From the UHGV virus genome UHGV-0086135: DNA of 64,000 nt; one strand, 5' to 3'. Positions within the stretch are counted from its first letter, which is position 1, and each line of letters begins with the position of its first letter. The translations under genes were made by a program, and so were the position numbers. This DNA is from a virus. The notes under the pieces are model-generated. The model worked only from the letters and a program-made list of their open reading frames with translations, was not told the origin of the DNA and searched no databases. Shown here in pieces: positions 1 to 20,158 of the stretch.

Positions 1-65
1 TTAACTCTCTGACTCCGGAACAGCAGCGCGACGTTATCGCTCGTACCTTTACTGAGAGCTTGTAA
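1..65 (+). CDS. C-terminal fragment of upstream CDS (hypothetical, vs-locus)
   Basis: Open frame entering from window edge; stop TAA 63-65 overlaps next start (TAATG). Confidence 0.3.
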   Translation, partial: NSLTPEQQRDVIARTFTESL

Positions 66-286
66 TGGCAAAGATAATTATTGAAGGTTCTAAAGATGTG
101 TTAAATGCTTTCGCCGAGTGGTTTAGTAATTCAGGCGAACAGCAATTTAATGAAGCGTGGAATATGGGTGATATTAGTGGAATTTATCCTACGACAGAAA
201 TTTCTGTTCAAGGATATGGCATTCATGAACCTATTCGTTTAGTTGAATATGATTTATGTACTGGCGAGGAAGTCAAATATGATTGA
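65..286 (+). CDS. hypothetical small protein (vs-locus), 73 aa
   Basis: ORF packed head-to-tail with neighbours upstream of regB. Confidence 0.5.
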   Translation: MAKIIIEGSKDVLNAFAEWFSNSGEQQFNEAWNMGDISGIYPTTEISVQGYGIHEPIRLVEYDLCTGEEVKYD

Positions 287-545
287 AGACATTAAGGGTT
301 ATAAGCCACATACTGAAGAGAAAATCGGTAAAGTGAATGCAATCAAAGATGCTGAAGTTCGTTTAGGACTTATCTTTGACGCTTTATATGATGAATTCTG
401 GGAAGCACTAGATAATTGTGAAGACTGTGAATTCGCGAAGAATTATGCTGAAAGCCTCGATCAGTTAACTATTGCTAAAACGAAACTCAAAGAAGCCAGT
501 ATGTGGGCTTGTCGTGCTGTGTTCCAACCAGAGGAAAAATATTAA
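279..545 (+). CDS. hypothetical small helical protein, 88 aa; occupies the vs.4 position (possible Acb2-like sponge, unverified)
   Basis: ATG 279 with GAGG 9 nt upstream, overlaps stop of previous ORF; second ORF upstream of regB. Confidence 0.45.
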
Positions 546-823
546 TGGCTCAATTAAGCGCAGGGTTTGGTTATGAGTATTATACTGCCCCTCGTCGTGT
601 ATCTGTTGCTCCTAAGAAAATTCAAAGTCTTGATGACTTCCAAGAAGTAGTCCGTAAAGCTTTCCAGGACTATGCACGTTATCTTAAAGAAGATTCACAG
701 GACTGTCTCGAAGAAGATGAAATTGCTTACTATGAGCAGCGTCTTGAGCAGCTTAAAAACCTACATGAGGTCCGTGCAGAAGTTTCAAAGTCTATGAATA
801 AATTGATTAGATTTAAAGAATAA
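545..823 (+). CDS. hypothetical small protein, 92 aa (vs.3 position)
   Basis: ATG overlapping previous stop (TAATG); acidic helical product. Confidence 0.45.
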
Positions 824-825
824 CT

Positions 826-855
826 GTTTACTTTTCCTCTTGACTGTGGTATAAT
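826..855 (+). promoter_or_regulatory. T4-type early promoter (GTTTAC 826-831, TATAAT 850-855)
   Basis: -35/-10 hexamers with 18 bp spacer upstream of regB. Confidence 0.6.
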
Positions 856-882
856 TTTTCTATCAGTTAAGAGGAGAATAAC

Positions 883-1344
883 ATGACTATCAACACAGAA
901 GTTTTTATCCGTCGAAATAAGCTTCGTCGTCACTTTGAGTCGGAGTTTCGTCAAATTAACAATGAGATTCGTGAGGCATCAAAAGCAGCAGGGGTCTCAT
1001 CGTTTCATCTAAAATATTCTCAGCATCTTCTTGATCGTGCAATTCAACGGGAGATTGATGAGACATATGTTTTTGAATTATTCCACAAAATAAAAGACCA
1101 TGTTTTAGAAGTTAATGAATTCCTGAGTATGCCTCCGCGTCCTGACATTGACGAGGATTTTATTGATGGGGTTGAATACCGTCCTGGACGTTTAGAAATC
1201 ACAGATGGAAATCTTTGGCTTGGATTTACAGTTTGTAAACCTAATGCGAAGTTCAAAGACCCGTCGCTTCAATGCAGGATGGCAATTATCAACAGTCGTC
1301 GTTTACCAGGAAAGGCTTCTAAAGCAGTAATTAAAACTCAATGA
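883..1344 (+). CDS. regB: RegB site-specific endoribonuclease
   Basis: 153 aa; sequence MTINTEVFIRRNKLRRHFESEF... matches my recollection of T4 RegB. Confidence 0.9.
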   Translation: MTINTEVFIRRNKLRRHFESEFRQINNEIREASKAAGVSSFHLKYSQHLLDRAIQREIDETYVFELFHKIKDHVLEVNEFLSMPPRPDIDEDFIDGVEYRPGRLEITDGNLWLGFTVCKPNAKFKDPSLQCRMAIINSRRLPGKASKAVIKTQ

Positions 1345-1351
1345 GGTAAGC

Positions 1352-1897
1352 ATGAGAAAAGCACTACTCGCTGGTCTATTGGCCATTTCAATGATGGCGC
1401 ATAGCTCCGAGCATACTTTCAGTAATGTCCAACTCGATAACATGCGTTACGCGTATCAATTCGGGGAACAATTTTCTAAGGATGGAAAATATAAAACACA
1501 CAAAAATATCCACAAGAGCGGATTAGGTCATATAATGGCTGCTATTTTATGGCAAGAAAGCTCTGCCGGAGTTAATTTAAAATCTAAACCAAAGCATCAT
1601 GCCTATGGAATGTTCCAAAATTATTTGCCTACTATGCGAGCAAGAGTTAAGGAACTTGGTTATAATATGACCGATGCTGAAATAAAAAGAATGTTGAATA
1701 AACGGTCCAATTCAGCTTCCTGGGCGTACATTGAACTTTCTTATTGGTTAAATATACATAAGGGCGATATAAGAAAGGCGATATCCTCTTATAATTCGGG
1801 ATGGAATGTTAAAGCAGGTTCTAAATATGCTTCTGAAGTCCTAGAAAAGGCTAATTACCTTAAAAATAATAAACTTTTGGAAATAGTAAATGACTAA
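1352..1897 (+). CDS. secreted protein with lytic-transglycosylase-like motif (vs.1 position)
   Basis: N-terminal signal peptide; ILWQESSAG...YGMFQN resembles SLT ES...GLMQ motif. Confidence 0.55.
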   Translation: MRKALLAGLLAISMMAHSSEHTFSNVQLDNMRYAYQFGEQFSKDGKYKTHKNIHKSGLGHIMAAILWQESSAGVNLKSKPKHHAYGMFQNYLPTMRARVKELGYNMTDAEIKRMLNKRSNSASWAYIELSYWLNIHKGDIRKAISSYNSGWNVKAGSKYASEVLEKANYLKNNKLLEIVND

Positions 1898-2231
1898 AAT
1901 TTTGGTTTTATGTATAGGATTAATTTCATTTTCTGTGTTAGCAGATACATCATATACTGAAATTAGAGAGTATGTAAACCGTACTGCCGCGGATTATTGT
2001 GGGAAAAATAAAGCATGCCAAGCTGAATTTGCGCAGAAATTAATATATGCATATAAAGACGGAGAAAGAGATAAATCAAGCAGATATAAAAATGATACAT
2101 TGTTAAAACGATATGCTAAAAAGTGGAATACCTTAGAATGTTCAGTTGCGGAGGAGAAAGATAAAGCCGCTTGTCATTCAATGGTTGACCGTTTAGTAGA
2201 TTCTTATAATCGAGGATTGAGTACTAGATGA
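1890..2231 (+). CDS. small secreted protein, 113 aa (vs position)
   Basis: Signal peptide MTKILVLCIGLISFSVLA; several Cys. Confidence 0.5.
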   Translation: MTKILVLCIGLISFSVLADTSYTEIREYVNRTAADYCGKNKACQAEFAQKLIYAYKDGERDKSSRYKNDTLLKRYAKKWNTLECSVAEEKDKAACHSMVDRLVDSYNRGLSTR

Positions 2232-2707
2232 TTGTAAAATATATCAAGGGCGATATTGTCGCCCTATTTCTTCAAGGTAATATTATTGCGCACGGGTGCA
2301 ATTGCTTTCACACAATGGGCTCTGGCGTAGCAGGTCAATTAGCAAGAGCCTATCCCAAAATTTTAGAAATAGATAAAACCACTACCGAGTACGGTTCTCG
2401 TGATAAATTAGGTGATATGTCTATTGTTTTTAAACATAGCCCTACGGGATTTGGTATATGCTATAACCTGTATACGCAATACGAACCGGGTCCTAATCTT
2501 GATTATGGTGCTTTAGTAAACTGCATGATAGAATTAAATCTACAGGCAGAAACCCTTTTGTTTAAACCAGTAATTTACATTCCACGTATAGGTTGCGGTA
2601 TTGCTGGCGGCGATTGGGATAAGGTTTCTAAATTAATCGACATGTTTACTCCTGATATTGATTTAATAGTGGTGGATTATGAAAGTACATTACCCGCATC
2701 CGTTTGA
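2228..2707 (+). CDS. macro-domain protein (ADP-ribose binding/hydrolase fold), tk.4 position
   Basis: AHGCNC...MGSGVAGQLA...IGCGIAGG motifs typical of macro domains. Confidence 0.65.
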   Translation: MIVKYIKGDIVALFLQGNIIAHGCNCFHTMGSGVAGQLARAYPKILEIDKTTTEYGSRDKLGDMSIVFKHSPTGFGICYNLYTQYEPGPNLDYGALVNCMIELNLQAETLLFKPVIYIPRIGCGIAGGDWDKVSKLIDMFTPDIDLIVVDYESTLPASV

Positions 2708-2891
2708 TCCTAAAAACAAAGTGGAAATTATTCGTCAATGGGAACGCATTTGCCGTACTAAATGCCCAATTAATAGTCCACATGATGTAGATAAAGACTA
2801 TATTGGAACATTCGTTGAATATACCTTTATTGATAAGAAAGGTCGTAAACAACATGTAGAAGAATATTGTTTAAAGGTTACATGGTTATGA
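2679..2891 (+). CDS. hypothetical protein, 70 aa
   Basis: ORF in tk-upstream small-gene run. Confidence 0.4.
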   Translation: MKVHYPHPFDPKNKVEIIRQWERICRTKCPINSPHDVDKDYIGTFVEYTFIDKKGRKQHVEEYCLKVTWL

Positions 2892-3094
2892 GCCAAACTA
2901 GTATTCTTAAAAATGCCCACTGCGAAAAGTGTGAATGGCCAGTTGTTTTTGCTTTATGTAATGATGAAATGACTTGTGATTTCGATTATTGGTGCTATTG
3001 TTCTAATAAAGGATGCATCAATCATAAAGGTGAAGGATTTTATTCAGGATTTTATCCTTATCCTGATTTCGTTAAAGAAGGTAAACCGAAATGA
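2888..3094 (+). CDS. Cys-rich small protein, 68 aa
   Basis: ATG overlapping previous stop (ATGA); CxxC pairs. Confidence 0.4.
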   Translation: MSQTSILKNAHCEKCEWPVVFALCNDEMTCDFDYWCYCSNKGCINHKGEGFYSGFYPYPDFVKEGKPK

Positions 3095-17870: not shown

Positions 17871-18344
17871 ATGTTATTGACTGGCAAATTATACAAAGAA
17901 GAAAAACAGAAATTTTATAACGCACAAAACGGTAAATGCTTAATTTGCCAACGAGAACTAAATCCTGATGTTCAAGCTAATCACCTTGACCATGACCATG
18001 AATTAAATGGACCAAAAGCAGGAAAGGTACGTGGATTGCTCTGTAATCTCTGCAATGCAGCGGAAGGTCAAATGAAACACAAATTTAATCGTTCTGGCTT
18101 AAAGGGGCAAGGCGTTGATTATCTTGAATGGTTAGAAAATTTACTTACTTATTTAAAATCCGATTACACCCAAAATAATATTCACCCTAACTTCGTTGGA
18201 GATAAATCAAAGGAATTTTCTCGTTTAGGAAAAGAGGAAATGATGGCTGAGATGCTTCAAAGAGGATTTGAATATAATGAATCTGACACTAAAACACAAT
18301 TAATAGCTTCATTTAAGAAGCAGCTTAGAAAGAGTTTAAAATGA
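17871..18344 (+). CDS. 49: endonuclease VII (Holliday junction resolvase)
   Basis: 157 aa; CxxC...HLDHDHELNG...CNLCN zinc/H-N-H core. Confidence 0.85.
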   Translation: MLLTGKLYKEEKQKFYNAQNGKCLICQRELNPDVQANHLDHDHELNGPKAGKVRGLLCNLCNAAEGQMKHKFNRSGLKGQGVDYLEWLENLLTYLKSDYTQNNIHPNFVGDKSKEFSRLGKEEMMAEMLQRGFEYNESDTKTQLIASFKKQLRKSLK

Positions 18345-20158
18345 CGATTGAAAAAGAAATTGAAGGATTGATTCATAAAACTAATAAAGACCTTTTAAAC
18401 GAGAATGCTAATAAAGATTCTCGTGTTTTTCCAACTCAACGGGACCTTATGGCTGGTATTGTGTCTAAACACATTGCCAAAAATATGGTCCCGTCTTTTA
18501 TTATGAAAGCGCATGAAAGCGGAATTATCCATTTCCACGATATTGATTATTCCCCTGCTCTTCCATTTACTAATTGCTGTTTAGTAGATTTAAAAGGAAT
18601 GCTTGAGAATGGATTTAAGCTCGGTAATGCGCAGATTGAAACTCCTAAATCAATCGGCGTTGCTACTGCAATTATGGCACAAATTACTGCACAGGTTGCT
18701 TCTCATCAATATGGCGGAACGACTTTTGCGAATGTAGATAAAGTACTTTCTCCTTATGTTAAACGCACCTATGCAAAACATATTGAGGATGCAGAAAAAT
18801 GGCAAATCGCTGATGCATTGAATTATGCCCAATCTAAAACAGAAAAAGACGTATACGATGCATTCCAAGCTTATGAATATGAAGTAAATACTCTCTTTAG
18901 TTCAAACGGACAAACACCTTTTGTAACAATTACGTTTGGTACGGGAACTGACTGGACTGAACGAATGATTCAGAAAGCAATTCTGAAAAATCGTATTAAA
19001 GGTCTTGGTCGCGATGGGATAACTCCTATTTTCCCTAAGCTTGTTATGTTCGTTGAAGAAGGCGTTAATCTTTATAAAGACGATCCGAACTATGATATTA
19101 AGCAGCTTGCTTTAGAGTGTGCAAGCAAAAGAATGTATCCTGATATTATTTCAGCTAAGAACAATAAAGCTATCACTGGTTCATCTATTCCTGTTTCTCC
19201 AATGGGATGTCGTAGTTTCTTGAGCGTATGGAAAGATTCGACTGGTAATGAAATTCTTGATGGACGTAATAATCTTGGTGTTGTAACACTGAATCTTCCT
19301 CGTATTGCATTAGATTCTTATATTGGAACACAGTTCAATGAACAGAAATTTGCCGAATTGTTCAATGAACGAATGGATTTGTGTTTTGAAGCTTTGATGT
19401 GTAGAATTAGTTCCTTAAAAGGAGTTAAAGCGACTGTTGCTCCTATTCTTTACCAAGAAGGTGCATTCGGGGTTCGTCTTAAACCTGATGACGACATAAT
19501 TGAGTTATTTAAAAACGGTAGAAGTTCAGTGTCCCTAGGATACATTGGTATTCACGAATTGAATATTCTTGCCGGTCGTGATATTGGACAGGAAATTTTA
19601 ACTAAAATGAATGCTCGTCTTAAGCAGTGGACTGAAAGAACCGGTTTTGCTTTTAGCTTGTATTCTACTCCTGCTGAAAACCTGTGCTATCGCTTCTGTA
19701 AACTTGATACTGAGAAATATGGAAGTGTAAAGGATGTTACTGATAAAGGCTGGTACACTAATAGTTTCCATGTTTCAGTAGAAGAAAATATTACTCCGTT
19801 TGAAAAGATTTCTCGCGAAGCCCCATATCATTTCATTGCGACAGGTGGTCACATTTCTTATGTTGAACTTCCTGATATGAAAAATAACCTAAAAGGTCTT
19901 GAGGCTGTATGGGATTATGCTGCACAACATTTAGATTATTTTGGTGTTAATATGCCAGTAGATAAATGTTTTACATGCGGAAGTACCCATGAAATGACTC
20001 CTACTGAAAACGGGTTTGTTTGTTCTATTTGTGGAGAAACTGATCCTAAAAAGATGAACACAATAAGAAGAACTTGTGGCTATTTGGGAAATCCGAATGA
20101 ACGCGGATTTAATCTTGGAAAAAATAAAGAAATCATGCATAGGGTTAAACACCAATGA
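18341..20158 (+). CDS. nrdD: anaerobic ribonucleoside-triphosphate reductase, uninterrupted
   Basis: 605 aa continuous ORF; C-terminal Cys cluster and glycyl-radical region. Confidence 0.95.
   Translation: MTIEKEIEGLIHKTNKDLLNENANKDSRVFPTQRDLMAGIVSKHIAKNMVPSFIMKAHESGIIHFHDIDYSPALPFTNCCLVDLKGMLENGFKLGNAQIETPKSIGVATAIMAQITAQVASHQYGGTTFANVDKVLSPYVKRTYAKHIEDAEKWQIADALNYAQSKTEKDVYDAFQAYEYEVNTLFSSNGQTPFVTITFGTGTDWTERMIQKAILKNRIKGLGRDGITPIFPKLVMFVEEGVNLYKDDPNYDIKQLALECASKRMYPDIISAKNNKAITGSSIPVSPMGCRSFLSVWKDSTGNEILDGRNNLGVVTLNLPRIALDSYIGTQFNEQKFAELFNERMDLCFEALMCRISSLKGVKATVAPILYQEGAFGVRLKPDDDIIELFKNGRSSVSLGYIGIHELNILAGRDIGQEILTKMNARLKQWTERTGFAFSLYSTPAENLCYRFCKLDTEKYGSVKDVTDKGWYTNSFHVSVEENITPFEKISREAPYHFIATGGHISYVELPDMKNNLKGLEAVWDYAAQHLDYFGVNMPVDKCFTCGSTHEMTPTENGFVCSICGETDPKKMNTIRRTCGYLGNPNERGFNLGKNKEIMHRVKHQ

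Follow-up and report, generated by a model that had tools for sequence, protein, structure and literature searches.

Two phage proteins that sequester immune messengers are the closest described counterparts of the genes analysed here. The first is the product of T4 vs.4, a gene equated with acb2 in PMC10449767, PMC12657218 and PMC10312549. T4 Vs.4, since renamed Acb2, acts as a sponge for cGAMP, three molecules of which are taken up by its hexamer (PMC10449767); its structure, PDB 7UQ2, is that of Jenson et al. 2023 as summarised in the same paper. T4 Acb2 restored phage growth on CBASS hosts, the signal being sequestered without degradation (PMC10449767, PMC12657218). Cyclic dinucleotides are ligands of T4-Acb2, whereas neither cA3 nor cAAG is bound, a preference linked to residues D61 and T68, and a D61R mutant is still without cA3 or cAAG binding (PMC10312549). 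Loss of function has been documented for Y8A in the T4 protein (PMC12657218) and for Y11A/K26A in the Acb2 of phage PaMx33 (PMC10312549). In the Panoptes decoy system acb2/vs.4 is both necessary and sufficient as the trigger; Acb2 Y8A fails to trigger it, and F82C shows weaker binding of 2′,3′-c-di-AMP (PMC12657218).

The second protein, the product of T4 vs.3, is TadIV-1, for type IV Thoeris anti-defence 1 (Nat Commun 2026; PMC13243611). T4 without vs.3 is sensitive to type IV Thoeris, and complementation was also carried out in that study. TadIV-1 binds N7-cADPR with a KD of ~216 nM and yields the intact ligand after denaturation; its two-helix hairpins pair into a dimer, a disordered N-terminal loop makes the binding pocket, and mutants showed its function to depend on R17, R18 and K24. 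Activity is confined to long forms (>80 aa), short forms of ~70 aa being inactive (PMC13243611).

In the window (the whole 64,000-nt stretch of viral DNA that was analysed), bases 65-823 almost certainly hold vs.5, acb2 (vs.4) and tadIV-1 (vs.3) as one coupled string, two of whose three products would sequester immune messengers. The present analysis establishes which genes these are, which residues are conserved and what folds are predicted; how the proteins oligomerise, bind their ligands and inhibit defence is taken from the literature on the identical or near-identical T4 proteins. Both sponges were already known, Acb2 having been published in 2023 and TadIV-1 in 2026, and the alleles are identical or nearly so to those of T4; the finding is doubly known because the ORF neighbouring acb2 encodes a second published sponge. 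A sequence-only reading had described three tightly coupled ORFs of 73, 88 and 92 aa before regB. That layout was recovered exactly, with overlaps of 8 nt and 1 nt and with regB at the coordinates listed below, and the position of the middle ORF as vs.4 agrees with the T4 gene order vs.6-vs.5-vs.4-vs.3-regB. The second sponge, vs.3/TadIV-1 in the next ORF (PMC13243611), had been missed, and the cyclic-nucleotide binding tests then suggested had already been published for T4 Acb2 (PMC10312549).

Table 1. Features at the start of the window, with the evidence for each.
Feature	Position	Strand	Description and evidence
vs.6, 3′ end	1-65	+	GrcA-like autonomous glycyl radical cofactor; cut at window edge; T4/PP01 alignment and annotations
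vs.5	65-286	+	73 aa, acidic, pI 4.2; ORF, conserved frame, phrog_1986
Off-frame ORF within vs.5	105-242	+	45 aa; not a gene; GC3 0.50, codon-position GC reversed
vs.4 = acb2	279-545	+	88 aa; 88/88 with PDB 7UQ2; Pfam PF24729, 71.4 bits
vs.3 = tadIV-1, long form	545-823	+	92 aa; 90/92 with re-sequenced T4 Vs.3; PDB 9WIW
Early sigma-70 promoter of regB	827-855	+	Top-scoring site on the + strand of 1-3000; same sequence in T4 and PP01
regB	883-1344	+	GGAG-specific endoribonuclease, anchors gene order; Pfam REGB_T4, 230 bits

Over the first 3 kb of the window the top identity to Tequatrovirus (T4-like) phages is 98.7%, with ~98% identity to PP01 across the same interval, and the order vs.6 tail-vs.5-vs.4-vs.3-regB-vs.1-vs-tk.4 matches the T4 and PP01 annotations. 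Pfam domains were found in two of the neighbours, SLT in vs.1 and Macro in tk.4. The Macro-domain product of tk.4 (window 2228-2707; Pfam 32 bits) has 159 aa, compared with 155 aa for its T4 counterpart, and two unnamed small ORFs are annotated between tk.3 and tk.2 in PP01, with none there in T4. As expected for a T4 early region, the + strand carries every ORF of at least 120 aa in window 1-64000 except three. A 605-aa ORF (18341-20158) is uninterrupted, and tRNA and Rfam scans of the whole 64,000-nt window gave no tRNA gene, no Rfam family and no group I intron. Beyond the window, the synteny vs5-acb2-(vs3)-regB was kept in 37 of 40 sampled loci, regB being present in all 40 and vs3 in 20. 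In some genera, for example in Winklervirus Kc304, the GrcA-like vs.6 lies between vs.5 and acb2 and not upstream of vs.5 (loci L005, L032 and L035-L039), so its position in the block is variable.

The product of the middle ORF and the crystallised form of T4 Vs.4 (PDB 7UQ2, an entry of six chains; E 1.9e-57) are identical at 88 of 88 residues, and the product matches the Pfam family Acb2_Tad1_hairpin (PF24729) with 71.4 bits, where the cut-off is 27. That T4 vs.4 encodes the cyclic-nucleotide sponge Acb2 is borne out by this family match and by the literature, which equates the two, and an assignment formerly made by position is now proven by alignment to the T4 protein. At the nucleotide level the gene differs from that of re-sequenced T4 at 11 positions, all synonymous. 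Residues Y8, K23, D61, T68 and F82 are all present. When the window protein was aligned with those of four other T4-like genera (five in total) and with PaMx33 Acb2, K6, G7, Y8, I16, N20, K23, L29, G30, M75, R79 and P84 were invariant. The tyrosine and lysine of the dinucleotide pocket (Y8 and K23 in T4, Y11 and K26 in PaMx33) are therefore present and aligned, whereas the trinucleotide pocket, which occurs in some Acb2 members only and involves R67/T74 in PaMx33, should be absent, the window protein having D61/T68 as in T4-Acb2. These matches identify the middle product as Acb2, a cyclic-dinucleotide sponge that would block CBASS. Since the proteins are identical, T4 biochemistry should carry over to the window protein: a hexamer would follow from the identity to 7UQ2 and the published T4 and PaMx33 data, and because D61 and T68 are as in T4, binding is expected for dinucleotides and not for cA3/cyclic trinucleotides.

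The three reading frames are joined at their ends. At the vs.5/vs.4 junction, ATGATTGA, vs.4 starts before vs.5 has ended, its ATG being at 279-281 and the vs.5 TGA at 284-286, which gives an 8-nt overlap; at the vs.4/vs.3 junction, TAATG, the vs.4 TAA (543-545) and the vs.3 ATG (545-547) overlap by one base, and the vs.6/vs.5 junction is also TAATG (63-67; vs.6 TAA 63-65). The ribosome-binding sites of vs.4 and vs.3 are of the GAGGA type. The regB promoter (TTTACT, 17-nt spacer, TATAAT, TG extended -10), the strongest promoter-like site of the first 3 kb, marks where the coding run of vs.5-vs.3 stops. Scanning of the + strand of 65-823 for sigma-70, MotA-box and late promoters found none, and since there is no promoter-like site in this interval, transcription of vs.5-vs.3 must start upstream of the window. 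We infer that the three genes are co-transcribed from a promoter outside the window; the vs.8 promoter has been used to express Vs.3-Vs.8 genes (PMC13243611). The genes form the 3′ part of the Tequatrovirus vs.8-vs.3 gene run, read as one translationally coupled string. Within window 1-873 the first GGAG, the RegB cleavage motif, occurs at 873 in the regB Shine-Dalgarno sequence, and there is none in vs.5-vs.4-vs.3; absence over ~870 AT-rich bases is probably not statistically meaningful.

The first gene of the string is mis-framed in the T4 reference. By tblastn, 987 of 989 phage records have the 73-aa vs.5 frame at full length, at identities that fall as low as ~42%. The T4 reference lacks one base near window position 114 (105-125), and as a result the annotated Vs.5 has 58 aa (NC_000866 7382-7558), with its C-terminal two-thirds off-frame. 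This 1-nt deletion is found only in X04567, AF158101 and NC_000866, which are 1986-derived records; the extra base is present in every independently sequenced T4, and MT984581 annotates a 73-aa vs.5 overlapping vs.4, as in the window, where 65-286 corresponds to MT984581 63325-63546. The vs.5 annotation of PP01 is the off-frame ORF of Table 1, and the frameshifted T4 Vs.5 reads into the same ORF. Comparison of these records marks the 58-aa reference Vs.5 as the product of a 1-nt error and vs.5 as a genuine conserved gene, predicted to encode a 73-aa acidic alpha/beta protein. Because of the mis-framing, screens built on the T4 reference annotation would use a wrong or truncated protein.

Vs.5 matches phrog_1986 end to end (E 3.6e-43). 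The AF2 model (pLDDT 87.9) has one helix (10-33) packed on strands 44-49 and 58-63. An earlier description of all three products as small helical proteins holds for Vs.4, by its solved structure, and for Vs.3, by its predicted hairpin, but not for Vs.5, for which an alpha/beta fold is predicted. Comparison of this fold with PDB and BFVD returned only its own uncharacterised homologues, and no sequence or fold similarity was seen to characterised sponges or anti-defence proteins. A DeoD match was dismissed at 13 bits against a cut-off of 230. A Vs.5 profile run over 1.84 billion representatives gave 21 matches; a few new small relatives of 66-71 aa had the GEQ motif, and multi-stretch matches in FG-GAP-like repeat proteins of 769-895 aa (WFENNGSQSFTE) were set aside as motif-level coincidence. 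In locus L032 (IMG/VR contig 2974754850_000001, 2501-2992) Vs.5 carries an 85-aa C-terminal extension, for a total of 163 aa (compare phrog_17468); the extension matched no Pfam family, and downstream of the extended gene come a truncated GrcA remnant and acb2, in that order. Among the phage papers searched, none mentions Vs.5.

Anti-defence genes tend to cluster. Vs.5 is the only one of the three products without an assigned function, and since it is encoded in the same coupled string as two sponges, it may plausibly have an anti-defence role. That it is a third counter-defence protein, a sponge or inhibitor that would make vs.5-vs.4-vs.3 a three-gene anti-signalling cassette, is a tentative and on balance unlikely reading. 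It is consistent with the coupling of vs.5 to acb2 through the 8-nt overlap, with the position of vs.5 immediately before acb2 in the majority of the 40 sampled loci, which come from several genera, with the small size and acidity of the protein (pI 4.2), with its accessory nature and confinement to T4-like phages, and with the absence of a housekeeping fold in the PDB/BFVD comparison. Adjacency to acb2 says little in itself, however, because T4-like gene order is conserved generally. Vs.5 is followed by acb2 in 37 of the 40 loci, mostly overlapping or adjacent, and another gene lies between them in 7 of the 40. Three sampled loci have vs.5 but no acb2, and Acb2 occurs in ~250 more records than Vs.5. 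Against type IV Thoeris, Vs.5 was reportedly inactive: Vs.3 to Vs.8 were each tried singly and only Vs.3 worked (PMC13243611). The Vs.5 clone in that test may have been based on the erroneous 58-aa annotation, and the protein could have been overlooked more generally through the frameshifted reference and the off-frame ORF annotations.

A role of Vs.5 in partnering or regulating Acb2, as a chaperone or specificity modulator for instance, is very improbable. The start/stop overlap with acb2 is kept in Tequatrovirus, Dhakavirus, Kanagawavirus and Marfavirus, as such a role might lead one to expect, but purified Acb2 binds its ligands alone and acb2 alone suffices in vivo (PMC12657218, PMC10312549). 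Moreover, PaMx33 Acb2 comes from a Pseudomonas phage whereas all the matches to Vs.5 fell within T4-like phages, and the two genes part company both in the 3 of 40 loci with vs.5 and no acb2 and in the 7 of 40 with an intervening gene.

The product of the third ORF matches PDB 9WIW, the TadIV-1 of UPEC07, both as a single sequence (E 4.9e-38) and as a profile of 18 homologues (E 8.8e-61), and is identical to re-sequenced T4 Vs.3 at 90 of 92 residues. The two differences, K38 and E64 in place of T4 N38 and T64, fall in variable alignment columns, and E64 agrees with the active UPEC07 protein. R17, R18 and K24 (T4 numbering) are present in the translation, R17 and R18 being invariant in the family alignment, and at 92 aa the protein is of the long form, with the N-terminal flexible loop. 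AF2 placed residues 1-28 below a pLDDT of 50 and without secondary structure, followed by helices at 29-53 and 57-91, a topology that agrees with the crystal description (PMC13243611), although as a monomer the helices were predicted at a mean pLDDT of only 62. The match and the conserved residues identify the 545-823 product as TadIV-1, a protein expected to act as an N7-cADPR sponge. Searches of Vs.3 against Pfam, NCBIfam and PHROG found only a PHROG of unknown function; a Tex_N match of 18.6 bits fell below its cut-off of 32 and was dismissed. Origin as a diverged Acb2 paralogue, suggested by adjacency and by the helical hairpins of both proteins, was rejected at an hhalign probability of 0.7%, and the two proteins are described as structurally distinct (PMC13243611).

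Because the molecule name given in PDB 9WIW is 'Endoribonuclease', and the gene adjoins regB, Vs.3 might also be taken for an endoribonuclease, a reading that we regard as extremely improbable. The paper behind 9WIW describes apo TadIV-1, with intact N7-cADPR bound and released and no nuclease activity (PMC13243611); Vs.3 is without a nuclease domain in Pfam or NCBIfam, and its AF2 fold is a two-helix hairpin. The name was probably carried over from a mis-annotation of the neighbouring regB, and TadIV-1 is the assignment retained.

All three ORFs bear the marks of coding sequence. The codon-position pattern GC1>GC2>=GC3 occurs in vs.5, vs.4 and vs.3 and is absent from the off-frame ORF, and tblastn found phage records for each product (989 for Vs.5, 1236 for Vs.4 and 725 for Vs.3). 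On these grounds bases 65-823 are read as three true genes. That they hold chance ORFs, or positional look-alikes without relation to the T4 genes, has practically no probability: its sole support was the caveat of the sequence-only reading that the assignment was positional only, and it is refuted by the 7UQ2 identity, by the 9WIW match and by the T4 comparison, in which the three proteins are 100%, 97% and 98% identical to their counterparts and the ORFs are kept across hundreds of genomes.

Phage T2 differs within this string. All eight T2 and SV76 records (8/8) have a 2-nt deletion in acb2, changing GGTTATAAG to GGATAAA (L044, T2 AP018813.1, 2479-2502), so that the native frame ends with MIEDIKG and the one product still possible is a TTG-initiated variant without Tyr8; a T2 acb2 mutation was already noted in the Panoptes paper (PMC12657218). 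Although it encodes a functional TadIV-1, T2 shows sensitivity to type IV Thoeris, which was attributed to 'insufficient expression' (PMC13243611). One idea is that translation of vs.3 is uncoupled by the early stop, which lies ~240 nt ahead of the TAATG that joins acb2 and vs.3; this would explain the Thoeris sensitivity of T2.

A working model of the locus can be drawn from these assignments. In the Acb2 hexamer each of the three dimer interfaces would hold a single cyclic dinucleotide, 3′,3′-cGAMP for instance, clamped between Tyr8 and Lys23 of two protomers, and with the dinucleotides so bound CBASS effectors would never be activated; through its binding of 2′,3′-c-di-AMP, Acb2 would also be the trigger of the Panoptes decoy. 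In the TadIV-1 dimer the flexible N-terminal loops, with R17, R18 and K24, would bind N7-cADPR, the TIR signal of type IV Thoeris, so that the caspase-like effector would not be activated. For annotation, the phage is predicted to evade cyclic-dinucleotide CBASS and type IV Thoeris and to be sensed by Panoptes.

The three products can also be set against known systems. Vs.5 shares with phrog_1986 the motif F..W.SNSGEQ.F.E and an LVEYD strand, in a family with no characterised member. Vs.3 has the long form and the R17/R18/K24 residues of T4 TadIV-1, to which it is identical at 90 of 92 positions (K38/E64 here, N38/T64 there), and the two antiparallel helices and disordered loop are predicted here as well; the 101-aa TadIV-1 of the UPEC07/VR7 type has a 9-residue N-loop insertion that the window protein is without. 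PaMx33 Acb2 (p26; PDB 8H2J, 8IXZ) also belongs to PF24729, its Y11 and K26 align with Y8 and K23, and the C-terminal R and P are kept. Similarity to the window protein is nonetheless weak (phmmer E ~0.03; 24% identity is published for the T4 and PaMx33 proteins, PMC10312549), and since PaMx33 R67 corresponds to D61 the trinucleotide pocket should be missing, as in T4-Acb2 (PMC10312549). T4 Vs.4/Acb2 itself is the same protein over all 88 residues, at the same locus and among the same neighbours, with the same Y8, K23, D61, T68 and F82, the 11 synonymous nucleotides being the only difference between the two genes.
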